DNA of 64,000 nucleotides from a virus (IMGVR_UViG_3300043185_000079); one strand, 5' to 3'. Shown: positions 2,384 to 60,662, counted from the first letter of the stretch. Program-made: numbers and translations. The notes: generated from the sequence alone by a model not told the origin.

Positions 2384-2398
2384 CGGTAATTGGCTTAT
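2384..2398 (+). promoter_or_regulatory. candidate late promoter motif CGGTAATTGGCTTAT
   Basis: Matches CGNTnnTnnnnYTAT; 19 nt before ATG 2418. Confidence 0.65.
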
Positions 2399-2417
2399 CG
2401 GGGGCCAGATCGTGAGA

Positions 2418-3788
2418 ATGGCCGAGGCCGACCACACAGAGCACTACTTCACCGTCCGCGGCCGGGGCTTCGACCAGAAGAGCTGGAGGACGATCCTGTC
2501 GGTCGTCCGTCAGATCGTGGATGATGCTCGCGAGAACGGTGTTGACGCGACGCTCGAGGGCGACGCTCGACGAGTCATCGTGTCCCCTTCGGGCGAAGGA
2601 ATGCCGCTCGTGATCTGGCGGACGGGCCAGCCCAACATCCCGGAATGCGTCACGGCCACGCCCCCGTTCGACGCCCTCGTCGAGAGCGTGCTCTCCGGGG
2701 TCAAGAAGATCGCCCCGGACATCTTCGAGATGACATCACCGGATGGACGGGACTACCGTCGGATTTTCGCCGACCAGGCAGCCTCGAGAAAGCAAACAGC
2801 CATGACGACCGAAGAGATCATCAGGAAGGCTGCCATCAGAGTGGCTGCCGGCACCCAGGACAAGGTGCTCAAGAGGGAGCTGCTCACCATCTTGAAGGAC
2901 TCCGTCGAGCACTGCGGGGACGAGGGGTGCGCGAGCGAAGAGAAGGAATCTCGTCACGAAGAGGGTAAGTCGGTCGACATCGGGGACTGGCTCCGCGACC
3001 ACGGGTACGAGGAAGCCGCAGACAAGTGGGAGAAGCATGAGGGCAAGATCGAGGAAATCGGCAAGTCGGCCTCCGCGGTCGTCTTTCCCGAAATCCGAGA
3101 TCTCGCGTGGCGCTACGTGCTGGAGTTCTCCGCCGCGAAGCCGACGTCGAAGCTCGCCGCCGCTTCGACCGCGACAAAAGCCGCCGCCGCGGAGCGTATG
3201 GCCAAGAAGTGGATCTCCGACGCCATCAAGCGTCCGGGTCGGGTGCACGAGTATCTCGGGATCCCCGAGGATCAGACGATCCCGATGGCGAAGCTCGACG
3301 CGGCCATCGAGAAGGTTAAGGCCACCGGCAACAAGTCGCTCCTGGCTGCTCTACAACTGGCCAAGCGCCTGAAGGGGATGAAGAAAGCGGCGGCCCCGGA
3401 CAAGGCTGCGGCGAAGTGGAAGACGATGCCCAAGGGGTGGACTGACGAGTCTCGCAAGAAGTTCTGGGAGTCGCTCACTGGTCGGTCCCCGAAGCACAAA
3501 GTCACCGCGTGCATCAAGAGGATGGAGGGCAACGTGTCGGACGCCGGAGCGTTCTGTGCTGCCCTCGCTGATCGTGTCCTCGGCACGACCGACTGGCGGG
3601 GCGAGGACCGCACGGCCCGGGCCAATCCGTTCGACAACGACCGGGTTCGGGCGAGGATCGCATCGACCAATCCGTGGATATCGTACGCGGAAATGGTCGA
3701 TCTCTGTCCCTCGTGTGCAGAACGGATGCACAACCATGGGATCACGCGGATCCACGCCAGTGTCATCCGCCGACTACTCGGCGCTTGA
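2418..3788 (+). CDS. multi-module putative virion-internal protein
   Basis: ATG 2418 follows the motif. Small modules separated by K/R-x-A (KSA, RMA, KAA, RTA, RIA); basic KKWISDAIKRPG module. Confidence 0.65.
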   Translation: MAEADHTEHYFTVRGRGFDQKSWRTILSVVRQIVDDARENGVDATLEGDARRVIVSPSGEGMPLVIWRTGQPNIPECVTATPPFDALVESVLSGVKKIAPDIFEMTSPDGRDYRRIFADQAASRKQTAMTTEEIIRKAAIRVAAGTQDKVLKRELLTILKDSVEHCGDEGCASEEKESRHEEGKSVDIGDWLRDHGYEEAADKWEKHEGKIEEIGKSASAVVFPEIRDLAWRYVLEFSAAKPTSKLAAASTATKAAAAERMAKKWISDAIKRPGRVHEYLGIPEDQTIPMAKLDAAIEKVKATGNKSLLAALQLAKRLKGMKKAAAPDKAAAKWKTMPKGWTDESRKKFWESLTGRSPKHKVTACIKRMEGNVSDAGAFCAALADRVLGTTDWRGEDRTARANPFDNDRVRARIASTNPWISYAEMVDLCPSCAERMHNHGITRIHASVIRRLLGA

Positions 3789-4218: not shown

Positions 4219-4465
4219 AAGCGAGGAGGCGACCTTGTCCCTGCTCGGAGCAATTCGTGAGCGTCTGAAGCCCATTCTCCTGGGGCGGTGGCGCGCAGCT
4301 CGGAAACAAGTTTCCGACAGGGTCGCGCGTGACGGCTTGACGGCACGAGAACAGAGGCTCTTCTTCGGGGGGTTCCAGGAAGGTTACTGGCGCGGAGCCC
4401 GCGACGTGACCACGATCAGTCCGTCGGATCTTTGTCCGCGAGACCGCTCGGGCCAAGTTCACTAG
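4193..4465 (+). CDS. hypothetical protein
   Basis: 90 aa ORF overlapping the previous gene end. Confidence 0.5.
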   Translation: MDSEPKSGRSEEATLSLLGAIRERLKPILLGRWRAARKQVSDRVARDGLTAREQRLFFGGFQEGYWRGARDVTTISPSDLCPRDRSGQVH

Positions 4466-4727
4466 CGCCACTCTCAGCCTTGAGACGACGAGAGATGTGC
4501 AGCTTGGCCTGCACGCGCTCGACCGCAACAGTCCACTCCCCGTTCGGAAGACGGACGCGTTTCGCGGGTCGTCGGATTATCTTGAAGGTGCCAAGGGGGG
4601 TCCAGACCTTCTCGCCTTCCTGGCACATCATCACGATGTCGGGGAACACATCGAGAACTTGGCGCACCTTTGCTGGATCGACACCTGTGGCTTCGGAGAT
4701 CCGAGCAAGAAGTTCATCGTAGGGCAT
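4416..4727 (-). CDS. HU/IHF-family DNA-binding protein
   Basis: ELLARISEATGV...GEKVWTPLGTFKIIRRPAKRVRLPNGE matches the HU helix plus beta-arm pattern. Confidence 0.8.
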   Translation of the reverse strand: MPYDELLARISEATGVDPAKVRQVLDVFPDIVMMCQEGEKVWTPLGTFKIIRRPAKRVRLPNGEWTVAVERVQAKLHISRRLKAESGASELGPSGLADKDPTD

Positions 4728-4764
4728 TCTTCTGCGTTGGGGGGTGAAATAGGGGCGCTAACAG

Positions 4765-4779
4765 CGATAGTTCGCCTAT
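4765..4779 (+). promoter_or_regulatory. candidate late promoter motif CGATAGTTCGCCTAT
   Basis: Consensus match; intergenic, upstream of ATG 4806. Confidence 0.65.
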
Positions 4780-6534: not shown

Positions 6535-7356
6535 ATGTCAGCACAGTACGCAAATCTCGGTGGTCGCCAGTTCGTGAACGAGGACTTCGTGAGCGACGTC
6601 CGCGAGCTGTACCCGCACTCGACGAGGAAGATTCCATTCGGGTGGAGTACGTACACAGGGTGGACTGGTAAAGACGAGGTGCTCTTCACCCGGCACGACG
6701 CGGTGGAGGGCCTTGAGGGGGACACCTACGAAGTCACGTTCGATCCGGTGAACCCGGCGGCGTTCGACGAGCGAATCCTCGGCGAAATCCAGCATGTCGT
6801 AAAGAGTGCGTCAGTCCCCATGGAACGGCAGGCCCGTGTTCCGAGTGGGCTCTACGGCTATGCAAAGTCCATTCAGGCAAGCTGCGAGTCCGCCTCGCGG
6901 CGGCTCAATCGCCGCGCCACCGACCTGGTGAAGAAGGCTGTCGCGCGTGACGCCTCGGTCCTCGGTTTCCTGGAGACGCATGCGCGTCGAGGGCCGAGTC
7001 TGGCCGCGCGGGTGCTCCTGGGGGCGTATGGGAGTTCGCTTCCCCGTCCCTCAGGGACTGTGACGGCTGGTGCCGTCAGGCTCGGTATGTACGGCTATCC
7101 GGCGAAGATCGCGAGGATCGCGTTGACGGCGTGCCAGGCCCTCCGAGAGGAGGCTGGCATGCTGGCGGCGGATCTGCATGTTCGCCGCGCCGGTGTGCAT
7201 GCGAAGATCGTCGGCTTCCTGGGCGAACACTCCAAGACCGGAGGCTGCACTGCGAGCGGCCTGATCCTGTCCTGCTACCCCGAGGCCGATTTCCGGTTCC
7301 GTCGGACCGCCACGGTCACGGACTGGATCGCGTGGGACGAGTCTCCTACGACATGA
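6535..7356 (+). CDS. putative virion-internal protein with internal duplication
   Basis: AGGAG RBS; two GLYGY/GMYGY repeats; KSA, RQA and RTA motifs. Confidence 0.6.
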   Translation: MSAQYANLGGRQFVNEDFVSDVRELYPHSTRKIPFGWSTYTGWTGKDEVLFTRHDAVEGLEGDTYEVTFDPVNPAAFDERILGEIQHVVKSASVPMERQARVPSGLYGYAKSIQASCESASRRLNRRATDLVKKAVARDASVLGFLETHARRGPSLAARVLLGAYGSSLPRPSGTVTAGAVRLGMYGYPAKIARIALTACQALREEAGMLAADLHVRRAGVHAKIVGFLGEHSKTGGCTASGLILSCYPEADFRFRRTATVTDWIAWDESPTT

Positions 7357-8749
7357 GATCATCGAGCGACCCGTCGTCTCGAGCCCGACGCATGAGGGAC
7401 TTCACGCGCTTGAGCGCGCCGGTGATTCTCTCCGTCTCCTCGATCGGAATGTGGTGTTCCTCGGCGATCTCGTCCACCGTCATCTCCTTGACGTAGCGAT
7501 CGACGAGCACCTGACGGTGCCACTCGACGTCCGCTTCATCACGGATCTCGCTGCACAGGACGCGCGAGATGCAGTCCAGGACGCTTTCCAGGTCCAGGTT
7601 CGCGCTGAGCGTACTCTCTGGGTTGAGACCATCGGTAAGGTACTCGATGGGGTCCGTGTTCGAGTCGTCCTCGCTATGCTCGGTGTGTGTGTACGACAGT
7701 CTTTGCTCTGATTCGTTGATCGTTCGAGGCACGACTTCGTGCGTCCAGTTCGTCGGGTCGTAGCTGGGGATTTCCCGCGGAGTGAGGGCTCCATGGAAAA
7801 CCCGGCATACGGGCTCGCGTCCATCGTTGCGGATCTCGCTGTAGGCTCCTCGACGCGCCCAGGCACAGATCTGGGAGGGCGCGGGACCTCGTCCATCGCG
7901 GACCCGTTCTTTCAGACCGTCTCGCTGGATGATTTTCTCGATCCAGCCCATCGCGTGGTCCTCGATTTTCCCGAGAGTCTCCGAGCGCGGCATCTTGGTC
8001 CGCAGGTGCATCGTCATGCGGCCGTAGATCCGGGAGAAGTGCTCGCCCAGGTAGCGCGCCGTCTCATTGGTGCCGCACGAGAGCACGATGCGTCCCTCGT
8101 ACGTCGGACACAGTGAGCGGGCCTTCTTCACCCCGTTGGCCGTCAGCTCCCACCCGCCCCGCTGAGATCCGCTGCACAGCGGGACGACATCCCCATGGAG
8201 TCCTCGAGTCTGGACATGCCAAGCGGCTTTGACGTCGCGTCGGGCGATGTCATCCGACTGGACCCCGAGAAGGCGAGGCGCGTCGGCGACGATGTGGTCG
8301 GGCCTCACGCTGACGTAAGGCTTGAAGCCCGACATCTTCCCGATGAGGTAGACCACAGGGTCCAGGTAGCGAGTGGCGCCGATTTCGACGGGACTCTCGT
8401 CGCGGAAGTAGCCATCCCACCGAGGGTACTTCTGCTGGACCTCGCGGGCAGCCGCGACCCCGGCCTCCGTCAAGCCCCACAGACCGGGAGCAGGAGCCGA
8501 ACACAGGCCCCACAGGTCCTTCAGCCACCGCCAGGCGAAGTGGACCTCGCGGTAAAGGCCAGGCGGGCTGTTGCCATGGAGCGGCCAGTCGGGGCGTCGA
8601 GGGTCGATCCCGCGCAACGCCAGGGCCTTGTCCCGTATCGCTCTCTGGTGGATCCCCACGTCTGAGCGGAAGTCGCTCGCCGTGCCGAGGAGATAGAGGA
8701 CGGGATCGTAGAAGTCGACGCCGCGTGGGCGTTCGGAGAGGTGCGCCAT
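7346..8749 (-). CDS. sigma70-like transcription factor with two N-terminal Mrr_N-like winged-helix repeats
   Basis: GAGGA RBS before ATG 8749. Repeats DPVLYLLG...GLWGLTEAG and DPVVYLIG...GGWELTANG; region-2-like WARRGAYSEIR; region-4-like RQVLVDRYVKEMTVDEIAEEH...ALKRVK. Confidence 0.6.
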   Translation of the reverse strand: MAHLSERPRGVDFYDPVLYLLGTASDFRSDVGIHQRAIRDKALALRGIDPRRPDWPLHGNSPPGLYREVHFAWRWLKDLWGLCSAPAPGLWGLTEAGVAAAREVQQKYPRWDGYFRDESPVEIGATRYLDPVVYLIGKMSGFKPYVSVRPDHIVADAPRLLGVQSDDIARRDVKAAWHVQTRGLHGDVVPLCSGSQRGGWELTANGVKKARSLCPTYEGRIVLSCGTNETARYLGEHFSRIYGRMTMHLRTKMPRSETLGKIEDHAMGWIEKIIQRDGLKERVRDGRGPAPSQICAWARRGAYSEIRNDGREPVCRVFHGALTPREIPSYDPTNWTHEVVPRTINESEQRLSYTHTEHSEDDSNTDPIEYLTDGLNPESTLSANLDLESVLDCISRVLCSEIRDEADVEWHRQVLVDRYVKEMTVDEIAEEHHIPIEETERITGALKRVKSLMRRARDDGSLDDLMS

Positions 8750-9040
8750 GTTGTCCTCGCCTGGGCTCAAGAGCCGCAGCTAAGTGGGGTGCCGGTGTGC
8801 TCGGGTCCTGGACATGTCCTGAGACGGGCAGGTCAGTGGACGGAAGCGCGACCCTTCTACGGCGCGAGGTGTGGCCCTGTCAAGATTTCCGCAGCGATGG
8901 GCGTCAGCAGAACATTGGTGAGAGAAGTCCGTGGCTTGCGGTCCGATAGCTAAACTATTGGTGCCGAGCGGCCGGAAAGATTTTTCCTGTGGATAACTCG
9001 GGAGAGATCTCCCTTTGGTCGGACCGGGGTGCGGCCCCGT

Positions 9041-9055
9041 CGCTTATGCCTCTAT
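9041..9055 (+). promoter_or_regulatory. candidate late promoter motif CGCTTATGCCTCTAT
   Basis: Consensus match 24 nt upstream of ATG 9080. Confidence 0.65.
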
Positions 9056-9079
9056 AGGCGAGACTCAGCGGTGACCCCC

Positions 9080-10312
9080 ATGCCCGATTTTGCCGACCCG
9101 CTCGTGCGCCGCTACCTGCGAGCCGCCATCGAGCGGACCGCGCTATGGAACATGGACATGTTCGCGCGGCTGAGCGTGTTGGAGGGCGCGGCTGGTCGCA
9201 CGCCCGGTGAGTGGGTCCGCATGGGTGAGCGCGGGTTCGGGAAGGCGAAGGAGCACTTCGGGCCAGGCCTCGCCGCGGCCTGGTCGACCTCGGGGAACAC
9301 AGGGGTGTACGACGCGGCTGTCTCGTCGGCTGAGAAGACGCTCCGTAACGTGCCCGGGTTGGACGGAGCTGATCTCGTCCAGGAGATGATGGTGGGCTCC
9401 AGCAGCCCACGAGCGCCGAGCAATGGCAACGGCAAGACCGAACTCGTGGGTCCTCGAAGGCAACGGATCTTCTACTCCGTCGGCGAGACCGTCAAGAAGA
9501 TGGAGGGCGATGACAGGCTGCGATCGGGGGTCATCGGGCCCTCTCACCGCCACATCATCGCGGACATCCGACGCTGGGTACAGCGCGCGGCTCTGGATGA
9601 AATCGCGAGATGGAAGCGGCAACGCATCGTTCCGTTCAGCCCAGGGGAACCACAAGGACTGGATCCGCTCAGGACTCGAGGCGAGAGGATGACGGATGAG
9701 CAACGAGAGAACCTCGTGCTGCTCGCCCTCCGGAGTCCAGGGGGTCCCGGACGCATCGTGCAGGATGTCGTGGAGGAGTTGGTCGACCGGCGATTCCCAC
9801 CCGCGCAAGCCAAGATCGTACGGGCGTTCTTGGCGAAGATCGGCCAGGAAAAGCTGCGGTCCTCGGCCGAGATGGGGCGCCTGGTCAAGACTTTCGATCC
9901 GAACAAGTGGTGGACGCAGGCGTTCAACGTCGTTCGTCGCGAGATCATGGAAGAGATGGGCGTCTCGGCACAGCAGCTCACCAACGCGCTCGGAGGAGGA
10001 GCGAAACGCGTCTTCGACTTCATGCAGAAGGACGTGGGGCGCGACCCGAGGATCATCAAGATCGTCGAGAACCTCGGAGAGCAGATTGACCTGCTCGAGC
10101 CCGGGCTCGGCAGCAGGGTTGCTCGTTCGCGGGTGCCGGAGTCTCTCCCGGAGCACCAGCGCCCCGTGTCGCCCTTCTCGTCGTTGAGCAATTGGCTGGA
10201 GAAGGATGAGCACATGGAGTGGGGCACGCAGAGCAGTCCGCTCGCGCAGCCCTCTCGGGGCCCCGTCCCCTTGCGCGTGGCGTCTCGGTGGATTGCCGTT
10301 AAGAATCGTTGA
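9080..10312 (+). CDS. divergent sigma-factor-like protein, probably virion-associated
   Basis: ADLVQEMM...RWVQRAALDEIARWKR resembles ECF region 2; REIMEEMGVSAQQL resembles an HTH; ERTA near the N-terminus and LRVASRWI at the C-terminus. Confidence 0.45.
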   Translation: MPDFADPLVRRYLRAAIERTALWNMDMFARLSVLEGAAGRTPGEWVRMGERGFGKAKEHFGPGLAAAWSTSGNTGVYDAAVSSAEKTLRNVPGLDGADLVQEMMVGSSSPRAPSNGNGKTELVGPRRQRIFYSVGETVKKMEGDDRLRSGVIGPSHRHIIADIRRWVQRAALDEIARWKRQRIVPFSPGEPQGLDPLRTRGERMTDEQRENLVLLALRSPGGPGRIVQDVVEELVDRRFPPAQAKIVRAFLAKIGQEKLRSSAEMGRLVKTFDPNKWWTQAFNVVRREIMEEMGVSAQQLTNALGGGAKRVFDFMQKDVGRDPRIIKIVENLGEQIDLLEPGLGSRVARSRVPESLPEHQRPVSPFSSLSNWLEKDEHMEWGTQSSPLAQPSRGPVPLRVASRWIAVKNR

Positions 10313-12327: not shown

Positions 12328-12342
12328 CAATGCTTCTTCTAT
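12328..12342 (+). promoter_or_regulatory. candidate late promoter motif variant CAATGCTTCTTCTAT
   Basis: One mismatch to consensus; followed by GGGAGG and ATG 12361. Confidence 0.5.
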
Positions 12343-14604: not shown

Positions 14605-14619
14605 CGTTAGGTCGCCTAT
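14605..14619 (+). promoter_or_regulatory. candidate promoter motif variant CGTTAGGTCGCCTAT
   Basis: Consensus except position 7; intergenic before the RNR gene. Confidence 0.4.
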
Positions 14620-14706
14620 ATCCGAGGTCATGTTGCGCGCGCGCGGGACTCTCGTGACCTGCGCGCCGCGTATAAGCTCAACGGACCGCATCGGTCGAGG
14701 TCACGC

Positions 14707-18678: not shown

Positions 18679-18712
18679 CTCCTCCCATTCTCGCGGGGGG
18701 TAGACTCTACAA

Positions 18713-42372: not shown

Positions 42373-42380
42373 GACACACC

Positions 42381-42985: not shown

Positions 42986-43000
42986 CGGTGTTTTCGCTAT
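42986..43000 (+). promoter_or_regulatory. candidate late promoter motif CGGTGTTTTCGCTAT, overlapping a hairpin arm
   Basis: Consensus match; GCGAAACCCGCC (about 42960) can pair with GGCGGTGTTTTCGC. Confidence 0.65.
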
Positions 43001-43023
43001 AGGAGGCGGCTGACAAGAACCCC

Positions 43024-46693: not shown

Positions 46694-46696
46694 TTC

Positions 46697-47320: not shown

Positions 47321-47323
47321 CCC

Positions 47324-48022
47324 ATGGACGCAGCGAAGAACCCATTGAGTCGTGACCAGCTCCTGGCGTTGATCCCTGACGACGCGCAGAGGGTGAAGGT
47401 CGTTGACGAGAAGGGGCAGGAGCGCTGGCGCGACGTAGCTGCGGACGGCCTCGACGCGATCTTGGACAGCGACGAGATTGTCCTTCTCTCTGGTGAGCCG
47501 GTCGTCATGCGCATGCGACCCGGACGCCGTAAGAAGCCTCCGAGGGCCGCACCTCCTCCCGCGGTGAACCAAACAGTCGCACAGCTCCAGGCGTCCAAGT
47601 CACAACATTTTGAAGACGATGCGCTGATCAACAAGATCGATCACGGGATCGACTCCGAGGACGTTCTGTACCTCGTCATGCGGGGATTCGCTGAGGAGGC
47701 AGCGTCGCTGGAGTTCGAGCGTGGGGAAGCCGAGCGCACGGGCAGAGAGACGAGCCAGTTGTCGATCCGGCGCATCAACGCTCTCAAGGCCCTGGCAGAG
47801 ACGTGGATTAAGCGCAAGGAGCAGCTCGCCGGCAAGTCCATCGACATGGAGTCGCCCGCGTTCACCAAACTTTTCGACTTTATCATCGCCACGTTTCGCG
47901 AGGCGATGATGGCAGGGGGAGTTCCGGTGGACCAAGCGGAGATCGTGTTCACGCGCTTGGCCGATCGTCTCAAGGATGAGACGTGGGAGCAGGAGGCGCA
48001 GAACAGGATGAAGGGAGCGTGA
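47324..48022 (+). CDS. putative terminase small subunit
   Basis: Helical protein immediately upstream of TerL; positional evidence only. Confidence 0.4.
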   Translation: MDAAKNPLSRDQLLALIPDDAQRVKVVDEKGQERWRDVAADGLDAILDSDEIVLLSGEPVVMRMRPGRRKKPPRAAPPPAVNQTVAQLQASKSQHFEDDALINKIDHGIDSEDVLYLVMRGFAEEAASLEFERGEAERTGRETSQLSIRRINALKALAETWIKRKEQLAGKSIDMESPAFTKLFDFIIATFREAMMAGGVPVDQAEIVFTRLADRLKDETWEQEAQNRMKGA

Positions 48023-48023
48023 C

Positions 48024-49916: not shown

Positions 49917-50177
49917 ATGGTGAAGGGTATCTCGCCCGACGATCCTTGTCGGGCCGACCATCGGATCATCCGGTTCTTGCTCGACACGTTCTTCAAGAAG
50001 AAGAACGCACTGCACGACCCGAAGGAATTCGACAAGGTATCGCGAGTATTCGCCAAAGCAGGTGGATCCTGGGAGCGACTGTTCAAGGGGGCGGCCGAGG
50101 ACCTGAATCTCCTTAAGCGCGTCATCAAAATCGCCCTCAAGACGGGCCACATCTCCAAGGCACCGCGTCTCCGGTAG
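49917..50177 (+). CDS. hypothetical protein
   Basis: 86 aa ORF abutting TerL. Confidence 0.55.
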   Translation: MVKGISPDDPCRADHRIIRFLLDTFFKKKNALHDPKEFDKVSRVFAKAGGSWERLFKGAAEDLNLLKRVIKIALKTGHISKAPRLR

Positions 50178-50192
50178 GATGAGGACGAGTAG

Positions 50193-50687
50193 ATGCACGA
50201 GGACGACGACATCCAGCCCGAGAATCTCAAGGCTCCCGAGAAAGAGCCCGATGCGAGTCCTGAACTCGCGAAGATCGAGCGGCAGTCGATCCATGAGGCC
50301 ATCGCATCCCTCAATGATGCCCAGCTTCAAGAGCGGATCGACGCGGAACGGGCGGCCCGCCGTCGAGAGCACGAAGAGAAGACTCGGGTCTTCAAGGTAC
50401 GCAGGACGGAAGAGGCCAGGCGTGCCCGTACACAACGAGTCCGGGCCCTCGTCAGTGCCGAGGAGAAGGTGCAGGCGCACGTTGCCGCCGCCTCGCGGTC
50501 CATCCGGGCCGCTATCCGCGAACTCACGGATCTCCCCCTACCGCGCCACTCGCGGGAGGCGAGGGAACAGAGGCGAGCCATCACCACGCTGGGAACAGCA
50601 CTGGGATCTCTCCGGGCAGCCGGTCGCCGCATGTCCGTGTCCGAAGACGCCGACATTGATCCCGATCTCGATCTTGATGTCGGGTGA
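50193..50687 (+). CDS. hypothetical coiled-coil protein
   Basis: 164 aa; GAGGA upstream. Confidence 0.55.
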   Translation: MHEDDDIQPENLKAPEKEPDASPELAKIERQSIHEAIASLNDAQLQERIDAERAARRREHEEKTRVFKVRRTEEARRARTQRVRALVSAEEKVQAHVAAASRSIRAAIRELTDLPLPRHSREAREQRRAITTLGTALGSLRAAGRRMSVSEDADIDPDLDLDVG

Positions 50688-50728
50688 ACCTACGATGAAG
50701 ACCATGATCCCACAGACGCGAGGACGCT

Positions 50729-52672
50729 ATGCCGGCTGAGGGCACGAAGAACGCCATCGCTGGGTCGGCAAGCCCCTCGTCTCTCAAGAAGAACGACGAC
50801 GAGGTCGTGGTGGGCACGGTCGAGCAGCGAAGAGGACGGCCCGAACGCGTGGGCGTGGACACCATGAGAACGGCATCGGCCGGGAACGCTCAGGTGGCCG
50901 AGGATAGTCGTCGAGGGGTTCAAGTTGGAAAACCTTCCCGTGTTGTCACGGGAACCATGCGTGGCCGGGCTGGTCCTCCCAGCTTCCGTGACAAGGTAGC
51001 GGCGGCATGTGGCCCTGGATCGGGGAGTTTCGGTGGCCTTGGCGGCGCTGGGGGCGTTGTCGGCGGGGGAGGAGGGAGCGGCGGGGGAGGAGGGTTCTCT
51101 GGCAACTTCGGACCGGGCAGTGTCGCGCAGGCCAGTTCGGGCAACTTCTACAGTCCCGAACTCAGCACGGACTTCCTGGAGCTTCCACAGTCTCTCAACG
51201 AACAGTGGAACTACTACAGGTTTTTCTACAACAACGAGCCGTTCGTCGGACAGGCTATCGATCTACACACGGAGCTGCCGCTGTCGAAGGTCCGGCTGGC
51301 TCGCCCGAGGGCTCAGACCCGCGAACTCGCCGATCAGGCTCTCCGGTTTTGCGAGAAGTGGATCAACCGGATCGGACTCCTGCAGCGGCTTATTGAGATT
51401 GTTCACGAGTACTACCTGATCGGCGAGGTGTTCATCTTCTGCGAGGACGCGAACCCGGACATGCCGCAGGAGGTCCGACAGAAGGTGGTGCGCGAGGTCA
51501 AGCCCGACGGCTCCCTGGTCGAGACATGGGTGGACTACGATGACGCCGACGCGCGAGCGGTGCGGTGGATGAAGAAGAACTACAGGGGCTGGACGGCCAT
51601 CCGCGTGCTGCCACCAGAGCAAGTCCACATCGAGACATTCCCCTTCACGAGCCAGGCTCTCATCGAGCTAATTCCTGACGCCAAGACGAGGCATGTCATT
51701 AACATGGCGGACCAGGGCGACGAAAGGGCCTGGCGCATTGTCGAATCCATGGACTCCGCCGTCGTGGATGCCGTGCGCGGTGGCGCGAACATCCCCCTGA
51801 GCACCGATCCGGACGGGGGCTCTTTTGTCCACTACATGGCGAACAAGAAGTCCCAGTATGAGCCCAGGGGCCACAGTATCCTGCAGCGATGTTTGAGGGT
51901 CTTGGTATTTTCTGACAAACTGAGACAGGCTCAGACTCAAATTGCTTCGCGGCACATGACCCCGATCCGTCTCGTCTACGCTGAGGACATGGACGAGACG
52001 GACACGGAGGCGCTGCGCGACCAGATTGATCTCGCCTTGCAGGACCCCGACTACTCGATCGTGACCAACTTCCAGGTCACGTGGGAGGAGATGAACAGTA
52101 ACGGCCGTTTGCTTGAGCTGTCCTCAGAGTACGACCTCATCAACCGCCAGCTCTACGCGGGTCTCGGCGTCACCGAGGCGCTCCTCAACGGCGAGTCGAG
52201 CTATTCCGGCGACCGCATCAACCTGGAAGTCATCAACACGAGGTACATGCTCCTCCGCGAGAACATCCAGAACCTCGTGGAGGAGAACTTCTTCAAGCCC
52301 ATGTGTCGACGCATGGGGTTCGTCGAGGAGGATGAGGACGGCAACCTGGAAGTCATCTACCCTCGCCTGTCCTTCACGCGGCTCGCTCTCCGGGACAACC
52401 AGGACACCTTCGACGCGCTGTTCCAGCTCTACCAGAAGGGCTCGCTGGACGTGGAGACCATCCTGGATCTACTGAACATCGACCCCGTGACCGTGCGCGA
52501 GCGCCTGGAGCGGGATTTTGCGACGTATAACGACGCGAACTTCAACGAGGTTCTTCGGTCGATGTACGGACGAGTCGGTGACCAGATCGTGGAGGGGTCG
52601 GACCTGGTGGAGAGGATCGCCAAGACCCTCGGGCTCGAGTACAAGAAGCCCGAGCAGGCTGGCCGTTTCTAG
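50729..52672 (+). CDS. portal protein
   Basis: Downstream of TerL; RFFY..EPFVGQAIDLH, EYYLIGEVF and RGHSILQRCLR patterns; Gly-rich N-terminal extension. Confidence 0.75.
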   Translation: MPAEGTKNAIAGSASPSSLKKNDDEVVVGTVEQRRGRPERVGVDTMRTASAGNAQVAEDSRRGVQVGKPSRVVTGTMRGRAGPPSFRDKVAAACGPGSGSFGGLGGAGGVVGGGGGSGGGGGFSGNFGPGSVAQASSGNFYSPELSTDFLELPQSLNEQWNYYRFFYNNEPFVGQAIDLHTELPLSKVRLARPRAQTRELADQALRFCEKWINRIGLLQRLIEIVHEYYLIGEVFIFCEDANPDMPQEVRQKVVREVKPDGSLVETWVDYDDADARAVRWMKKNYRGWTAIRVLPPEQVHIETFPFTSQALIELIPDAKTRHVINMADQGDERAWRIVESMDSAVVDAVRGGANIPLSTDPDGGSFVHYMANKKSQYEPRGHSILQRCLRVLVFSDKLRQAQTQIASRHMTPIRLVYAEDMDETDTEALRDQIDLALQDPDYSIVTNFQVTWEEMNSNGRLLELSSEYDLINRQLYAGLGVTEALLNGESSYSGDRINLEVINTRYMLLRENIQNLVEENFFKPMCRRMGFVEEDEDGNLEVIYPRLSFTRLALRDNQDTFDALFQLYQKGSLDVETILDLLNIDPVTVRERLERDFATYNDANFNEVLRSMYGRVGDQIVEGSDLVERIAKTLGLEYKKPEQAGRF

Positions 52673-52679
52673 CTCACAG

Positions 52680-52694
52680 CGCTACTCGTTCTAT
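52680..52694 (+). promoter_or_regulatory. candidate late promoter motif CGCTACTCGTTCTAT
   Basis: Consensus match 20 nt before ATG 52715. Confidence 0.7.
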
Positions 52695-52714
52695 CCGATA
52701 CCGTGGGAGAGACC

Positions 52715-54784
52715 ATGGTGCTCCCATCGATCGATCTCCCGACTCGCGAGAGTATCGGACATCCTGCGGACACCCCGGCCAGGGTCGGAATTCTCGTCCA
52801 CATGGCTCGACCCTCCAGGCGCCGCGAGTACAGCATGTCTCGGTGCATGGGGGAGGGTTGCAAGCGGTCCCCTGAGATCGAGTGCATCTGGGCCGACGGT
52901 CGTGGCCGCGCCTGGTTCTGTGAGCGACACTTCGACGCCTGGGCTGCGAAAGACACGGACGGAGGACTCCCGAAGGCTATCGTCAAGCAGCGCAGGGTTC
53001 CTGACGGTGTGGTGGGCGAAAAGTACGGCGAGTATCCCGAAGCCAAGACGGCTGCGGGGGCCCAGTTCATCGTCGTGTCCGCGAAGGGCCCTGGACAGTG
53101 GCCTACCGACCCCGTCCAAGTCATGTCCCGGGAAAGGGCCCTCGACTACCAGTCCGCGGGTGTCGTGATAGCCGGGTTTCGCACGGAGCGCGAGGCTGAG
53201 GAATTCGCAGACAAGATGCGTGACGCTGCTATCGACGTGACGGCGCCCGACGGGACGATCGTGTTCTCCGGGCGTCTCCTCGACTTCTCCGATCTGGCTC
53301 CGCGCCTCGGACTCAGGTTCGTCGACCGAGGGCGGCTTTTGCAGATCCTGCACCGTCCCACGACGGTGATCGGATCCGGCAGGCGCCAGATGACGGTCAC
53401 GCGCCGCGCGGGCAAGACCGCCAAGGCCACCGGATGCAAGACAGGCGACGGTCACAGCGTTGGGCTGTTCATCCCGCTCCCGCGAGATTTGGCCAAGAAG
53501 TTCCCTTCGCTGGGCGAGAATGACGACTCACCCTCCCATGTGACATTCCTGTACATCGGAGATTTCAAGGGAAAACGGAAGCAGGAGCGGCTCGTCGCCG
53601 TCCTACGAAGCTGCTTGCGTCGTTGGTGGCCCTCCTGTCGGGCGACACTCGGAGACTTGGCCTACTTCGATCACCACGACAAGGATCGCCGCGTGCCTCA
53701 CGTCCAGGTCGACTTCGACAAGGACATGAGTGGATTCAAGCACCGGCTGCGACAGGAACTTCACGAGGCCGGCATTGATGTTGGCGACACGTTCCCCGAG
53801 TACAAGCCCCACGTCACACTCGCTTACATGCCGGGCATGGATAGCGAGTGGGAAGGCCCTGTTCCGAAGGGGTCGTGGGACTTCGACACAGTCGAGATCT
53901 GGGGACTTCCGGAGGTCCACAAGATCAAGCTGGGGCCGTCGATTCACAAGATCTCGGAGGAGTGGGTTCTCCAAGTGATTGCTCGTCGTGTCGCGATGAA
54001 GCATTATGCTGCCGGTTGGCCGGACCGCGGCAGAGTAGCATCGGTATCCGTGAACGCGACGCACAGGCGCAACGTCACCCTCGTCAAGTGGCTATCCGAC
54101 TTGGCGCAACATCTCGGCGTCGCAAGGGACACGTACGTCGTGGGTGGGGCCGTGCGAAATTTCATCCTCGGCGAGCCCATCAAGGACGTGGATGTCGTCA
54201 TCGACACCATCAAGGCCGGCAGGGATTCTGAATGGCTGGCGCAGCAGGTGGCCAAGGCGATCCCGGTCCCGACCAACGTGACAACGAACCAGTACGGAGT
54301 GGCCATTCTCACCGTCAAGGGCGACTGGGTCCTCGACGACGAGAACCTCCGCGGCGAGATCATCGAAATCGCCAACGCGCGCAAGGAGAGCTACGGAGGC
54401 GAGACGGGCAAGGGTTATAAGCCGCACATGGTAGAGCCCGCCACCATCGAGGAGGACCTCAGGCGAAGGGATTTCACGGTTAATACGCTGATGTGGAGGT
54501 TGCTCGACTTGGCACACGGACCCGACCGGGCCGAGGTCGTCGATCTGATGGGATGTGGTCGGCGAGATCTTGAGCAGCGAATACTTCGATGCCCGCAGGA
54601 TCCAGATATCACTTTTTCGGATGATCCGACAAGGATGCTACGTCTGGTGCGGTTCATGTCCAGATACAACATGAAAGTATCTCCCGACGTAGCGGCAGCA
54701 GTGCGTCGCAACGCGCCCAAGCTCAAGAATGCTCCTTGGGAGGCCATCGCTTCGGTCCTGATGCAGACTCTGGAGGGACGGTAG
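52715..54784 (+). CDS. polyprotein: Cys module, 2H phosphoesterase and CCA-adding/poly(A) polymerase head
   Basis: 2H motifs SHVTF and PHVTL; NTase motifs VGGAVRN, KDVDV, DLRRRDFTVN and DDPTRMLR. Confidence 0.85.
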   Translation: MVLPSIDLPTRESIGHPADTPARVGILVHMARPSRRREYSMSRCMGEGCKRSPEIECIWADGRGRAWFCERHFDAWAAKDTDGGLPKAIVKQRRVPDGVVGEKYGEYPEAKTAAGAQFIVVSAKGPGQWPTDPVQVMSRERALDYQSAGVVIAGFRTEREAEEFADKMRDAAIDVTAPDGTIVFSGRLLDFSDLAPRLGLRFVDRGRLLQILHRPTTVIGSGRRQMTVTRRAGKTAKATGCKTGDGHSVGLFIPLPRDLAKKFPSLGENDDSPSHVTFLYIGDFKGKRKQERLVAVLRSCLRRWWPSCRATLGDLAYFDHHDKDRRVPHVQVDFDKDMSGFKHRLRQELHEAGIDVGDTFPEYKPHVTLAYMPGMDSEWEGPVPKGSWDFDTVEIWGLPEVHKIKLGPSIHKISEEWVLQVIARRVAMKHYAAGWPDRGRVASVSVNATHRRNVTLVKWLSDLAQHLGVARDTYVVGGAVRNFILGEPIKDVDVVIDTIKAGRDSEWLAQQVAKAIPVPTNVTTNQYGVAILTVKGDWVLDDENLRGEIIEIANARKESYGGETGKGYKPHMVEPATIEEDLRRRDFTVNTLMWRLLDLAHGPDRAEVVDLMGCGRRDLEQRILRCPQDPDITFSDDPTRMLRLVRFMSRYNMKVSPDVAAAVRRNAPKLKNAPWEAIASVLMQTLEGR

Positions 54785-54837
54785 GCGTGGCGGGCAATTT
54801 CGCGAGATTCAATGAGATGTTCGGCTGCAGAGTCTAT

Positions 54838-55276
54838 GGCTGACCCAAGGAAAGCACTCAAGGAGATGAAGGCACTGGGTCTGCTGGACGTGGTGTCTGA
54901 GATGATCCGGGAACAGAAGCCGTTCGCTACCTACATGGCCAACCAGCTCAGAGCCGACAGGCGCGTCCAGCTCCTTCTCGACATGATGGACCTTGGCGTC
55001 CCGGCCAGTATGCCCCTGTCCTTCCTCGACGCGGCCGGACGACAGCGCCTGCGCGAGCTGACCGTATCGATGTCTGAGGACGAGGCGTCGAGGCTCGTCG
55101 ATCTCCTGATTAAGCCGCCCGTGGACAGCATGCGCGTCATCACAGAGCTTGCCCTGGAGGGGCCGGCGCGGGCCGGGATCCTGCCCGCAGCCAGGCAGCT
55201 GATTCTCGCGCACCCGTGGCTGGCTAACGATTCCCGCCGGCTGACGGAGGAGGTGATCCGGCAGTGGACCAAATGA
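54838..55276 (+). CDS. probable detached C-terminal part of the CCA/poly(A) polymerase-like protein
   Basis: Same frame as the upstream gene; RKALKEMKALGLL matches the helix that follows the head/neck in this family. Confidence 0.55.
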
Positions 55277-55425
55277 TCACCCGTGTCGCCGCCCGACATG
55301 CCGTGCTCCGTTCGGCAACGGGTTACTTCCGCGAGGGCGAGGACATCCTGTTCGATCGCTACAACAAGGCCGGAAGAGGAACCGGACGATGGGCCTCTTC
55401 AACATCTGGAAGTTGTCTGAGGTGA
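55273..55425 (+). pseudogene. short RVA-motif ORF; probable frameshifted N-terminus of the 55389 protein
   Basis: ATGA-coupled start MITRVAARHAVLRSATGYF...; overlaps the 55389 frame, which is open upstream of its ATG. Confidence 0.5.
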
Positions 55426-58400
55426 GAGGCCTGCCTCCAAAAACCGGACGTGGAGTCGCGTTTCATGGTACGCGGTCGAAGAATCTCGATCACCTGCGGC
55501 GTTATGGGCTCGTGCCTGGAGCACGCAGTGCGTACACGGACGCCTATAGTAAGTACGACGACGGGCGTCATCTGTTCTTCACAGACAATGAGGACTTGGC
55601 GCGCCATTACGGAGACCTGATTCTGCGATTCCCTTGGCCAAGCGAAGCCAAGCCTGATGTTAACGAATTCGGACGCTATCTTCCTGGACAGTTCGTCTCC
55701 TTGCGGAAAATCCCGCCAGACGAGATCGATGTTTTGCGTGAGGGTACTTGGGAACCTCTCGTTGGAGGCTTGTCGAAGCAGGCCTGCATCATCGTCGGCA
55801 AGGACTTCGACGGCCACCTCTGTCTCCTCAAGAACCGGGATCGGTCGTACGACGTCAAGCTCCAGATCATGCACATGGAGTTCAACGGCGTCGAGATGGC
55901 GTTCGTACTCGATCTCGAGACCGGCTACCTGGAAGGGGTCAACGAGCACGGGATCGGCGTTGTCAACACGACGCTCATGGTGCTTCATGATGAGGCAGAA
56001 GGGCACTCGACCAAAACCAAGGGCAAGACGACGCTCAAGTCGAAGGATGGCCCGAAGATCTTCCACGCCCTCATACAGGACAATCTCCAAGACGCGGTCG
56101 ATGTTCTCGTGAGTTTCCGGGGAGGGATCCGCGGCCACACGTTCGTGGCCGACGGACAGACGCTGCTCAGTATTGAGTGCACTCGAAAGAACCCGGCCCG
56201 GGTACATCATCTCGATCCGGGGAGGGTCAACACGAGGACCAACCATGGCGTCTCATATCCCGAGGCTGGGTACACGCGCGGCGAGGACTATGTCTCGTCC
56301 ATCGTCCGTCGATGGGAGGCGCAGAAGCGGATTCAAGGGGTGAAGCGGCCAGAGGCCGCTGCTCCGGCCCTCGCAACGCTGATCGACGAGGCCGACAGCC
56401 CGTTCAATCCTGTCCGAGTGACTGACAAGATGCGGACGACGAGCCAGCTCCTCATCGATACGAGCACTCCGTCTCTCTACCTCTACCTTATTCCAGGTCA
56501 CGCGCGCGTCACCAAGATTCTCAATCTCCTTCCCGGAGGCAGAGCACCGAAGATTCCCGTCCGGGTGTTTCGCTACCGCAAGCGGATGGAAGACCGAGAC
56601 TTTGAGGACGACGGCCATGAGATGAAGGATGAAGTGGCAGATCCAGGAGGTGACTTGCTGGAGAAACGAACTGCTCGCTATAAGGACAAGAAGACGGTCA
56701 AGACCAAAGACGGCGACGAGCGAGTCATCTACGAGTACGGCCCGCGACAGGTCCTCAACCGCAACAAGGCCAAGGCGGAGCGTATCGAGAATCTGCGCAA
56801 GCAGATGTCGGCTCTCCGTCGGAAGGTCAAGAAGGACCTGGAGTCGTCCGACGACCAGAAACGCGCTGTTGCTCTCGCCGTCGCGCTGATGGACGAAACC
56901 TATGAGCGGCCCGGCAACGAAGCCAGTGCCAGCGAGGGTCACTACGGCGTGACGACGTGGCAGAACCGGCACGTCAAGTTCCGCAACGGAAAGGCCACGA
57001 TCACATACGTCGGGAAGTCTGGAGTCGAGCACAAGAAGGTCGTCGAGACACCGGCAGTCGTGAAGGCTCTCAAGATGCTCTGCAAGGGCCGAGGGAAGGA
57101 TGATCGCCTCATCGACGTCGAGGCGGCTGACGTCAACGAGTTCCTACGCTCGTTCGAGATTACGGCCAAGGACATCCGAGGGTTCCACGCGAACCGCGAG
57201 ATGAAGGACCGTCTCAAGAGGATCCGCCGTGAGGGGCCGGATCTCCCGCGGCCCCTCAAAGATCGAGACAAGATCCTGAAAGAGGAGTTCAAGCAGGCGC
57301 TGGCCGAAACCGCTGAGGCCGTAGGCCATACCGAATCCACGCTGCGCAGCCAGTACCTCGTCCCCGGGCTCGAGGACGAGTACATGAAGGACGGCACCGT
57401 CAGCGACAGCCACGTGAAGTCCGGGGGGGCGGCCCTTCTAGGCGCTCCTGGGGTCCAGGAGCGCCCAGAAGGCGCGCTGAGGGTCGCCGCCACCCGAGGC
57501 ACACCGACGGAGCGGAGGATCCTGGCGAACGCCCTGCTTGCCCCGGTGCTCGTAGTGCGCGATCGCCGCTGGTGGCTCGACGAGGCGCCGTCCCTCTACC
57601 GCCTGGCCCGTGACCACGAGCGGCCTAGACCTGTCATCGACGGTCTCCGGTTCGACCCCGACCTGTTCGCGATGCTCTGGTACGAGGACGAGGACGGGAA
57701 CAGGTTGCCCGAACCGCCCATTGGGGACCTCGCAATTCCGGAGGACTCCCATACACAGCATTCGAGGTTCCCCAACGTGCTGCGGCACACCATCCTGTTG
57801 CTTAATGACGACGGGACGTCGTCGAGCCTCGCGGCTGGGGAAAGTTCCTTTCCCTCTGATCTCGTGACGCAGATGGTTCGCAGCGGCGACTGGGACACCG
57901 CAGACGCAATCATGGTTGCCGGCCAGGCCTGCGAGCGATGCCTCAACGTCCTGCTCCACCATTACGGGATCGGGGATGGCTACCCGTTCGGGTCCGAGGA
58001 CTATTGGCGGGCGAACACAGTCTGTTCGATGTGCGAGGACATCGGCCGTCGAATGGCGACGAAGTCTCCCGCCGAGAAGGAGGATGAGAACGTCGAGAAG
58101 ATGCTACGGCCGGAACCGAAGAAGAAGCCTCCGCGCTACGACCTCCGCAACAACAGAACGCTGGAGGACCGGGACGAGGACCTGGAGGGTATGGGCGCAG
58201 GAGATCGTGGGGATCGAGACTTGAGTCTCAAGTGGAACAAGGTCGCTCATCGGGTGGCGTTCCGGTGGCTGGCCGTTCCCCTCGCGCCCGCTCCTCTGCG
58301 TGTGGCAATGCGGCGCATCGCCAGGCAGTTCCCCTCCGAGTTCCAGGACGAGGTGGCACACCAGCGGTTCACGCATCCAGAGACGCGCAACTCAGTCGGG

Positions 58401-60425
58401 TTTGGGTCGTTGCCTAGCGAGGAGCAGTCGAAGATCTACAAGCGGTGGAAAAGCAAGGCGCGGGAAGACAAGGCTCCACCAGAGGATGCCGAGAAATCCG
58501 AGAAAGGCAAGGAGGATGACGTCGAGCGTGAACTCGACGAGGCACGCGATCGGGTCGATTCTCTGGAGGATAAGGTTGATAAGGCCAAGGACCAGATCAA
58601 GGAATCGCGCGAAAACATCAAGGGGATCAAGAATCTGCTAGAGAAGGCTGGCGAGACGGCCCGAGGACAGCTCGAAGGAAAGCTGCGCGAGGAGGTCTCC
58701 AAGATGCGGAAGGCCGAGGACGCGCTGGAGGAAGTCACCGACGAATTGGAGGCGGCGCGCAAGCGTGTCGATCAGCTCAAGGCGGAGCGTAAGGCTCCCA
58801 CGAGCCGCGAAGACAAACGACGCGAGGATGAAGAGAAGCGCCGCAAGGAACGTGCCGAGGAGACTCTGGACGAGGTGCGCGATGCGGTGCGGGGGATGGT
58901 GTCGAAGGACTCCGACATCCCCGAGGACGTTCGGGCACAGATTGAGACCGCCTTCGCCAACTTGAGCGAGGAGCAAGTAGAGGATTTTTCCGAGGCATTC
59001 CAGAAGTCGTTGGGGAAGCTCGTCAGAACGGACGCTTCGTCCGAGGAGGCTGCGAACCTGGCCAACGCCTCGGTCCGCGCCGATCTGAGTGAGATTGAGG
59101 ATCCCGCAGAGCTGGCACGCACAGTTGCCGAAGTCGCGTACGCACGCAACGTGGTGACCAATCCTCTCGTCGTGGGTGGGAAGCCGCTCGGACAGACGAA
59201 GATGGACGATGCTGGCTACTCCGGTCGTGCTATGGAATCGTTCCGTCAGTTTCAGCGTCTCAGCCCTGCTCTCCGCGAGAGTGCGGCGGAAAAGATCGCG
59301 GAAGAGCTTCGCGGTCTCGACGAGGACTCCGATAAGGCACAAGAGCTACAGGCGATTCTCACAGGCATCAACACGGCTCATATCGCGGACACAGGCCACG
59401 CTTTGCCGGGTCGACCGCAGCCGAACAAAGGTGCCGCGGCTCTCATCCGTCGCATGGTGGAGAACGGTCAAGCCGAGACGATGTTCAAGCCGGTCGAGGA
59501 CTTCTTCGCCGACGACAGCCGCGCCGCGATGCAAAAGGCGCTCTCGGAAATGGACGACGCGGAGGTTGCTGACTTCGTGATCGGAGACGACGGGGATCAC
59601 CCATTCGGTAAGCTCCGCGAGGCCATGCAGGAGAAGGGCGCCAGTGAGTACAAGCAGCTCATCAAGGACTTCCTGATCCAAGATTTCATGAGTGACATCT
59701 GGGGTGATCGGGCCGTACGCGATTACATGGAGTCCGCTGGTTTCGCCGACTTCGATAATCCGGAGGCCAGGGCGCAGTTGCTTCGGGACACGAGGTACGC
59801 AACTGCACCCGAGGCAGACATGCAGGCGATCGCCAGGGCGCAGGCGGCGATCGCGGCCGGTCAGAAACCTGATCCAGAGGATGAGGAGCGTGCTCGAAAT
59901 TTCCTCGATCCAGAGACGGGGGGCGGGATCCGTGGGAAACTCCGCAAGCTCATGGAGATCTTGCAATCCAAGGTCAAGAAGCGTGTTGTCACCCCCGCGA
60001 CCGCGGTGATCAACCACTTCCTGGAGACGGGCGAGGCCGAGGTCCTCCACCAGGAGACCCTTCCACATCCTGACGAGGGCCGGGGCGGGGACACGGAGGC
60101 CAAGGAAGACGAGGGACACGGGTTGGGCGACGTGTGGAAAACTGACGAGGGGAACTGGCGCGCCAAGAATCTCGACGGAGTGCCCAAGACTTTCGATACG
60201 CGAGAGAAGGCCCAAGCATACGCCAAGGGCGGCAAGGACCGCAGGAAGCCATCGCGCGGCAGCGAGGCCCCTGGCGAGGAATTCTCGGCCGAGTTCACCG
60301 TGCCCGTCGAAGAACGAGGACCGACGAGGTTTGCCAACCATGTCGCGAACGCTTGGCTGGCCCAAGTGCGCAAATGCCACCCAGACGATCCGGGGCGTCC
60401 GCGAGTGGTTTTTGATACGGCTTGA
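55389..60425 (+). CDS. 1678-aa polyprotein: ART-like domain, Ntn-hydrolase, DNA topoisomerase IB, unknown and coiled-coil modules
   Basis: FHGT...GLVP...FFT...IPP; C-IIV...KNRD...EGVNEHG; topo IB residues ERPGN, GKSG, KDIR and GHT...QY. Confidence 0.8.
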   Translation: MGLFNIWKLSEVRGLPPKTGRGVAFHGTRSKNLDHLRRYGLVPGARSAYTDAYSKYDDGRHLFFTDNEDLARHYGDLILRFPWPSEAKPDVNEFGRYLPGQFVSLRKIPPDEIDVLREGTWEPLVGGLSKQACIIVGKDFDGHLCLLKNRDRSYDVKLQIMHMEFNGVEMAFVLDLETGYLEGVNEHGIGVVNTTLMVLHDEAEGHSTKTKGKTTLKSKDGPKIFHALIQDNLQDAVDVLVSFRGGIRGHTFVADGQTLLSIECTRKNPARVHHLDPGRVNTRTNHGVSYPEAGYTRGEDYVSSIVRRWEAQKRIQGVKRPEAAAPALATLIDEADSPFNPVRVTDKMRTTSQLLIDTSTPSLYLYLIPGHARVTKILNLLPGGRAPKIPVRVFRYRKRMEDRDFEDDGHEMKDEVADPGGDLLEKRTARYKDKKTVKTKDGDERVIYEYGPRQVLNRNKAKAERIENLRKQMSALRRKVKKDLESSDDQKRAVALAVALMDETYERPGNEASASEGHYGVTTWQNRHVKFRNGKATITYVGKSGVEHKKVVETPAVVKALKMLCKGRGKDDRLIDVEAADVNEFLRSFEITAKDIRGFHANREMKDRLKRIRREGPDLPRPLKDRDKILKEEFKQALAETAEAVGHTESTLRSQYLVPGLEDEYMKDGTVSDSHVKSGGAALLGAPGVQERPEGALRVAATRGTPTERRILANALLAPVLVVRDRRWWLDEAPSLYRLARDHERPRPVIDGLRFDPDLFAMLWYEDEDGNRLPEPPIGDLAIPEDSHTQHSRFPNVLRHTILLLNDDGTSSSLAAGESSFPSDLVTQMVRSGDWDTADAIMVAGQACERCLNVLLHHYGIGDGYPFGSEDYWRANTVCSMCEDIGRRMATKSPAEKEDENVEKMLRPEPKKKPPRYDLRNNRTLEDRDEDLEGMGAGDRGDRDLSLKWNKVAHRVAFRWLAVPLAPAPLRVAMRRIARQFPSEFQDEVAHQRFTHPETRNSVGFGSLPSEEQSKIYKRWKSKAREDKAPPEDAEKSEKGKEDDVERELDEARDRVDSLEDKVDKAKDQIKESRENIKGIKNLLEKAGETARGQLEGKLREEVSKMRKAEDALEEVTDELEAARKRVDQLKAERKAPTSREDKRREDEEKRRKERAEETLDEVRDAVRGMVSKDSDIPEDVRAQIETAFANLSEEQVEDFSEAFQKSLGKLVRTDASSEEAANLANASVRADLSEIEDPAELARTVAEVAYARNVVTNPLVVGGKPLGQTKMDDAGYSGRAMESFRQFQRLSPALRESAAEKIAEELRGLDEDSDKAQELQAILTGINTAHIADTGHALPGRPQPNKGAAALIRRMVENGQAETMFKPVEDFFADDSRAAMQKALSEMDDAEVADFVIGDDGDHPFGKLREAMQEKGASEYKQLIKDFLIQDFMSDIWGDRAVRDYMESAGFADFDNPEARAQLLRDTRYATAPEADMQAIARAQAAIAAGQKPDPEDEERARNFLDPETGGGIRGKLRKLMEILQSKVKKRVVTPATAVINHFLETGEAEVLHQETLPHPDEGRGGDTEAKEDEGHGLGDVWKTDEGNWRAKNLDGVPKTFDTREKAQAYAKGGKDRRKPSRGSEAPGEEFSAEFTVPVEERGPTRFANHVANAWLAQVRKCHPDDPGRPRVVFDTA

Positions 60426-60647
60426 GGGAGGGCAAACGTCCCTCGCGACGCTGTAAACCGATTTCTTGTCCTGTCTCGGGGGGTTTTCAATCCCTTCAAA
60501 GGCCGTCAGCGAGGAATCAGCACGCGGTTGCGGTAGGCCATCGATCCCAAAGGGGTGGTGAAGGTGGGTTTGTGTTCCTCGCGGAGGGCATTGAGATCTC
60601 GTGGGGATCTCGGGGGTGTTTTTCAGACCCGAAAACCCACGTTAGGT

Positions 60648-60662
60648 CGGTTTTCCCCTTAT
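60648..60662 (+). promoter_or_regulatory. candidate late promoter motif CGGTTTTCCCCTTAT
   Basis: Consensus match upstream of the operon that includes the protease. Confidence 0.7.

Follow-up and report, generated by a model that had tools for sequence, protein, structure and literature searches.

A 64,000-nucleotide (nt) stretch of viral DNA (IMGVR_UViG_3300043185_000079), referred to below as the window, was analyzed for a 15-nt motif of fixed spacing, CGNT-NN-T-NNNN-YTAT, which a previous reading of the sequence alone had interpreted as a compact late promoter read by a phage sigma factor. The window has a G+C content of 62% and carries nearly every gene on the plus strand. It encodes RecA-, RecD2- and SbcC-like proteins, clamp-loader proteins, and the large subunit of ribonucleotide reductase (RNR; 14707-18678), which carries an intein in which a LAGLIDADG endonuclease domain was matched by Pfam. 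The presence of genes for the terminase large subunit, the portal protein and the head protease together with these replication-type genes indicates that the window is part of a large tailed phage. The contig to which it belongs is about 144.7 kb in length. No cultured relative was found, and a megablast search of phage records with the 6-kb stretch 43887-49916 gave no match. The nearest public phage record is LR745208.1, an unannotated 485-kb sequence described as 'uncultured phage', and relatives at the protein level were limited to this record plus, for the terminase, distant jumbo phage and actinophage records. Dozens of metagenomic homologues were found for a 751-amino-acid (aa) protein (43887-46142), in syntenic contigs of up to 618 kb, and this protein was taken as the marker; the relatives compared below (labels L and G) extend down to a marker identity of about 50%. 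The copies of the motif and the genes discussed are listed in the Table.

Table. Motif copies and associated genes in the window. Distances are from the last T of the motif to the start codon.
Feature	Position	Strand	Remarks
Exact copy	2384-2398	+	19 nt before ATG 2418; orthologous genes of G002 and G004 have exact motifs 26-27 nt ahead
Previously overlooked gene, 103 aa	4416-4727	-	Divergent from gene 4806; 57% identity over 69 residues to a 186-aa minus-strand gene in G002
Variant copy (T at position 1, C at position 7)	4749-4763	-	21 nt before ATG of minus-strand gene 4416-4727; relaxed-pattern hit
Exact copy	4765-4779	+	26 nt before ATG 4806; orthologous exact copy in G002
Sigma-like protein, marginal ECF-like match	7346-8749	-	Sigma70_r4, 1.8e-5; TIGR02937, 0.005, below cut-off
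Relaxed-pattern hit, role uncertain	8944-8958	+	Within near-palindrome in divergent gap 8750-9079; block conserved in G002 and G004
Exact copy	9041-9055	+	24 nt before ATG 9080; orthologous sites of G002 and G004 have A at position 2, with T-run and CTAT end kept
410-aa protein, second candidate reader	9080-10312	+	Behind motif copy 9041
Variant copy (A at position 2, CAAT)	12328-12342	+	18 nt before ATG 12361; motif at the same 18-nt spacing in G002 and G004 orthologues
Variant copy (G at position 7)	14605-14619	+	87 nt before RNR start; same variant before RNR in G002 and G004
Exact copy	29392-29406	+	Right after stop codon of gene 27145-29391; overlaps an ATG; search of G002 and G004 gave no orthologue of the gene that follows
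NusG-family paralogue	37693-38241	+	Weak KOW, NusG and UpxY matches
Tandem sigma region 4 protein, 203 aa, prime candidate reader	38248-38859	+	
Exact copy	38863-38877	+	Directly 3' of tandem sigma-4 gene, 25 nt before ATG 38903; kept in most relatives examined
Exact copy	42986-43000	+	23 nt before GTG 43024; heads operon running to terminase and portal genes; orthologous copies in L001-L004, G1 and G3
Terminase large subunit	48024-49916		
Portal protein	50729-52672		
Exact copy	52680-52694	+	20 nt before ATG 52715 (2H phosphoesterase/nucleotidyltransferase gene); orthologous copies in L002-L004
Exact copy	60648-60662	+	78 nt before gene 60741, in gene run towards head protease; orthologous copies with conserved leader in G1 and G3
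Head protease	from 61858		

A total of eight exact matches to the pattern were identified in the window, all on the plus strand and none antisense, against an expectation of 0.76 (sd 0.9, maximum 4), and none of 100 shuffled sequences reached this number. Non-coding gaps of at least 20 nt make up 5.7% of the window, but seven of the eight exact copies are located inside such gaps, and the eighth (29392) begins directly 3' of a stop codon. When scored with a position matrix, the exact copies gave 15.6-24.1 bits and were set apart from all else, the next-best plus-strand hit being the variant at 14605 with 13.0 bits. Upon relaxation of the pattern, 10 hits were obtained against 3.3 expected, and the only two additions, at 4749-4763 on the minus strand and 8944-8958 on the plus strand, are both located in divergent regulatory gaps. 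The distance between T15 and the start codon was 19, 26, 24, 18, 25, 23 and 20 nt for seven sites.

All the exact copies reported in the sequence-only reading, and its two variants at 12328 and 14605, were recovered as described, and the strand and intergenic enrichment that it offered as a check was observed. One of its generalizations has to be narrowed: the exclusive use of the plus strand holds for the exact copies and not for the variant at 4749-4763. The spacing of 18-26 nt from gene starts, which it gave for most sites, holds for the seven sites above, with 60648, 14605 and 29392 departing from it in the manner given in the Table. The start codons that it had reassigned were supported, those at 2418 and 9080 by the N-termini of homologues and that at 52715 by the position of the Shine-Dalgarno sequence in relatives.

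The motif is real, conserved and orientation-dependent. Seven of the eight exact sites are conserved at orthologous positions (9041 as a variant) in relatives with a marker identity of only about 50%, and the variants at 12328 and 14605 are also kept at orthologous gene starts in G002 and G004. In relatives at this level of marker identity, the motif is retained with diverged flanking non-coding sequence at three gene junctions: after the tandem sigma-4 gene, before the DUF5661 gene heading the terminase-portal operon, and before the 2H/nucleotidyltransferase gene. Among the non-redundant copies pooled from 25 related sequences, 85 are on the plus strand and eight on the minus strand. In whole relatives the motif tracks the orientation of genes, with no forward and seven reverse copies in G001 and six forward and no reverse copies in G003, while the reversed pattern used as the control gave at most one match. 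The motif persists in relatives ranging from 42% to 66% in G+C content, which argues for a phage-encoded reader over a host sigma factor. In G004, the orthologue of the 12361 gene (locus L056) is preceded by a direct tandem of two exact copies (304174-304203, minus strand); the distal one keeps the canonical spacing of 18 nt to the start codon, and 3 nt separate the end of the proximal one from the ATG.

In the pooled alignment, the information content does not extend beyond positions 1-15, apart from weak preferences for G at -2/-1 and for non-T, G and G/C at 16, 17 and 18, respectively; upstream of -2 there is no conservation. Within the 5' half only C1, G2, T4 and T7 are invariant. The consensus of the near family is cGGTTTTCnnnCTAT followed by c or a, and in more distant relatives CGGTAGT is favored as the 5' half. 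In the same alignment, a purine-rich Shine-Dalgarno signal peaks at a fixed position, 16-20 nt past the last T.

The arrangement of divergent copies bears most directly on the function of the motif. In G002, a minus- and a plus-strand gene are separated by an 89-nt gap in which two exact copies stand back to back with 3 nt between them; each faces its own gene, the distances to the start codons being 24 and 32 nt. The counterpart in the window is the pair at 4749-4763 and 4765, also back to back and only 1 nt apart, and the gaps with such pairs are 78-89 nt in length in the window and G002. The minus-strand member of the window pair faces the previously overlooked gene 4416-4727, whose product looks like a DNA-binding protein of HU/IHF type. 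Since a separate promoter would find no space upstream of either copy in such a pair, the motif itself should direct initiation, unless promoters are interleaved, which is unlikely. The arrangement appears to favor a self-contained promoter over a signal that needs prior transcription.

A signal of the latter type would be an ops-like loading site in transcribed DNA, at which the NusG paralogue converts the polymerase into a termination-resistant form for the long one-strand gene arrays. The conservation of the NusG-family gene beside the first copy, the strict strand specificity of the element and its location in leaders, and the resemblance of the 5' half in some relatives to the ops core CGGTAG are all in line with this possibility. 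The ops bases essential for RfaH are, however, G5, A7, G8 and the C3:G8 pair of GGCGGTAG (PMC5995543), and these correspond to positions 3, 5 and 6 of the motif, which are variable. Besides, neither of the divergent copies, being 1-3 nt apart, has an upstream promoter to feed it, and the copies are many, one per short gap and not one per long operon. An ops-like role is thus unlikely.

The fixed distance to the ribosome-binding site could also be that of an RNA-level signal before each cistron, acting for example in RNA processing or in the control of translation. In its favor, many relatives allow pairing between the 3' half of the motif and the Shine-Dalgarno sequence at one orthologous site. 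This pairing is, however, not general: cognate pairs of motif and ribosome-binding site were no better than permuted pairs (permutation p = 0.16), and sequestration of the Shine-Dalgarno sequence was rejected as a general feature. Moreover, the consensus folds only weakly, nothing pairs with the invariant 5' half, and the divergent copies would need transcription from inside the opposing gene. An RNA-level signal is therefore considered very unlikely. The pairing itself, with some compensatory changes, was observed at the sites after the sigma-4 gene in L002-L004, L008, L009, L011, L016, L025 and L028 and in the window (38871-38905). It would mask the ribosome-binding site in read-through RNA, and not in RNA begun past the motif; the same logic of a masked ribosome-binding site operates for lysozyme and soc of phage T4.

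As to the class of promoter, a scan of the region 36000-55900 for the sigma-70 consensus gave one site against 3.0 expected, and none was located at the motif. Sigma-70 promoters are composed of TTGACA- and TATAAT-like hexamers 16-18 bp apart, whereas the conserved element here is 15-17 bp in all with nothing conserved upstream, and the dissimilarity to -35/-10 promoters noted in the sequence-only reading stands. Neither does the motif conform to the sigma-54 type of -24/-12 promoter, in which invariant GG and GC are 10 bp apart, as YTAT is without GC and position 3 is variable. A hairpin promoter of N4 type was rejected, because stems enclosing TAT averaged 2.9 pairs against 2.7 at control YTAT sites. 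Intrinsic terminators were not in excess in the same region (14 terminator-like sites against 11.2 expected), and the arrangement of an intrinsic terminator followed by a promoter was rejected on this basis.

The prime candidate for the reader of the motif is the 203-aa protein encoded at 38248. This protein matched Sigma70_r4 of Pfam (1.4e-13), and TIGR02937 at positions 86-162 only. Residues 14-100 match sigma region 3.2/4, closest to the SigB/F/G group, and a second region-4-like helix-turn-helix (HTH) is located at about 115-165. Its AlphaFold (AF2) model is all-helical with a pLDDT of 77.6, and the domains that it matches best are those of sigma region 4, the identity to that of a SigF being 40%. 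The protein is 50-79% identical in 27 loci, and 74-79% identical in relatives in which the marker protein is at 50%. Neither recognition helix varies among the aligned relatives, which include LR745208.1, and co-variation of the helices with motif variants is for this reason uninformative. The family is distributed over several ESM Atlas clusters of 65-182 members, all or almost all of which are viral; no described function for these clusters turned up in searches, and literature searches on the pair of sigma-4 and NusG genes or on the motif gave nothing relevant. The NusG-family gene is located directly upstream of the sigma-4 gene in every locus that carries the latter.

Two other sigma-like proteins are encoded in the window. 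The 9080 protein, for which no Pfam or PDB sequence match was obtained, was modeled by AF2 with a pLDDT of 64, and residues 219-330 of the model align to sigma region 3.2-4. The 7346-8749 protein is more likely tied to another class of promoter. A weak Sigma70_r2 hit in G002 and G004 was set aside, the open reading frame (ORF) being unrelated to the sigma-like proteins of the window.

The two tandem HTHs of the 38248 protein could fit the half-sites CGnTnnT and YTAT, which are about one helical turn apart. Such a spacing would also suit this protein as a repressor or an architectural protein, in which case the motif would be an operator with the true promoter elsewhere; the near-palindromic version in the gap 8750-9079 points in the same direction. 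No other shared promoter-like element was, however, found beside the copies, and operators do not usually show so strict a gene-facing orientation or a constant spacing to the start codon, making this explanation the most improbable of those considered.

Alternatively, the motif might be the promoter of an unrecognized RNA polymerase encoded by the phage itself, as it resembles promoters of T7 type in its compactness (15-17 bp, contiguous, without a -35 element) and in its CTAT-purine end, many copies showing CTAT followed by A/C and then G. A large number of the large proteins of these phages are without known function. On the other hand, five relatives, including two with a completeness of at least 90%, gave no match to T7-type RNA polymerase (PF00940) or beta subunit (PF00562), the search for the T7-type enzyme being without a positive control, and the catalytic DFDGD-type motif was absent from the long ORFs of the window, G1 and G3. 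The initiating bases are also weakly conserved, with about 0.1 bit at each of positions 16-18. We consider a phage-encoded polymerase quite unlikely.

Taken altogether, the motif is probably a compact, self-contained and phage-specific promoter of about 15-17 bp, used by host RNA polymerase after re-targeting by phage proteins. We base the promoter reading on the strand and intergenic bias, the orthologous conservation with diverged flanks, the phasing of the ribosome-binding site and the divergent copies; that the motif is active as a promoter and acts late, where transcription begins and which protein reads it are inferred. The motif would head the head and packaging operons plus a few other genes. 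The tandem sigma-region-4 protein would be the leading candidate for the re-targeting factor, its two HTH domains contacting the two half-sites, and it might act together with the neighboring NusG paralogue and/or the sigma-like 9080 protein. Transcription would start 2-10 nt past the final T, and with the ribosome-binding site 16-20 nt from that T the leaders would be short. The genes downstream of the motif include those for terminase, portal and head protease, and a late class would fit the post-regulator operon, the terminase-portal operon, the head-module genes and the protease. Of the original proposal, the compact promoter is thus supported, and the late timing agrees with the predicted functions of the genes behind it.

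Several observations weigh against this promoter model. Copies stand before non-structural genes (RNR and gene 29405), so that 'late' may be too narrow a term, and the positions just past the motif are so weakly conserved that the start site is not placeable. Only region 3.2/4 and the second HTH were matched in the 38248 protein, and no region 2; the protein is therefore not a complete sigma factor and cannot by itself explain DNA melting, and no clear region 2 partner was identified. The structural matches of the 9080 model, nearly all of them to sigma factors, are weak (Z about 5), and the match of the 7346-8749 protein is marginal. Reading by a phage sigma factor, as originally suggested, is plausible within these bounds. 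In LR745208.1, the exact pattern is not enriched and only a degenerate copy is present 3' of the sigma-4 gene, despite identical recognition helices.

A further, rather unlikely extension would be a split specificity factor of a new kind, made up of the tandem sigma-4 protein and the NusG paralogue. In it, the 'compressed' bipartite promoter would be read as double-stranded DNA by the pair of region 4 HTHs, and the NusG-like domain would sit on the clamp helices in place of sigma region 2 and deal with the non-template strand. If true, initiation would take place without a canonical region 2, and the system would be widespread, given that several clusters of the size noted above are virus-only.

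Some features of the surrounding regions deserve description. Two blocks in the part 8944-9013 of the divergent gap are conserved in G002 and G004. The near-palindrome ATAG-N5-CTAT of this part fits the relaxed motif on both strands, and the second block contains TGTGGATAA, which we take to be the reverse complement of the DnaA-box consensus; the part may be an origin or a regulatory region. The leader 60663-60740, following the 60648 copy, has a block resembling AATAG.CGAAGGGCTGCCC in common with the orthologous leaders of G1 and G3, and it may be an RNA element ahead of the scaffold and protease genes. Within the 87-nt leader of RNR (14620-14706), the blocks ATGCGCGCG and GGTCGAGGTCA are conserved in G002 and G004, and this may be a regulatory leader. 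Another element, GGGTA followed by A/G, is located about 10 nt before several starts in the replication region (18679-18712, 22998-23081, 29852-29875 and 36246-36281), including that of the dnaX-NusG-sigma-4 run, and is similar to the -10 element of SigB type, GGGTAT or GGGTAG (PMC8346170). Location of the dnaX-NusG-sigma-4 genes behind a different upstream class of motif would fit a regulatory cascade.

With a conserved promoter signal, operons can be mapped and gene starts corrected in large phages known only from metagenomes, and dozens of genes without a known function, among them those for enzymes of the head module, can be given a likely temporal class. Linked to this signal is a conserved pair of genes of no known function, coding for the tandem sigma-region-4 protein and the NusG paralogue, and this link yields a testable hypothesis for the takeover of host transcription by an uncultured phage clade. 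If the two-HTH protein reads the motif directly, the two would constitute a compact and portable promoter-factor pair.

The proposed system shares features with several known ones. SigO-RsoA of Bacillus subtilis is a two-subunit sigma factor, and the region-4 protein described here, being without region 2, would likewise need a partner to become a working specificity factor; it differs in the tandem duplication of region 4, and no region 2 partner was identified. The late promoters of T4, dependent on gp55, gp33 and the gp45 clamp, are short, phage-specific and without a -35 hexamer, and are present in many copies near late gene starts, as is the motif; they are read by host polymerase with small phage sigma-like proteins, as proposed here, and the candidate factor gene adjoins clamp-loader genes. 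The T4 promoter is, however, a single 8-bp TATAAATA element, whereas the motif is bipartite, and gp55 is region-2-like, whereas the candidate consists of two region 4 domains. Promoters of the T7 family are also compact, contiguous and without a -35 element, and as in the motif a purine often comes after the CTAT close to the 3' end, but the initiating nucleotides are poorly conserved in the motif and no T7-type polymerase was detected in the relatives. Promoters of SigB/SigF type, GTTTAA-N12-14-GGGTAT with the -35 element reading GTTT (PMC8346170), are of interest because the first HTH of the 203-aa protein is closest to region 4 of SigB/F/G and many motif copies have GGTTT in the 5' half and a TAT end; the halves of the motif are, however, about 10 bp closer and no GGG precedes TAT. 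The ops/RfaH system (PMC5995543) is similar in that a NusG paralogue is encoded beside the regulator, the element is strand-specific and the ops core is present in some copies, but the essential ops bases are unconserved in the motif, and the divergent copies argue for control of initiation over control of elongation.

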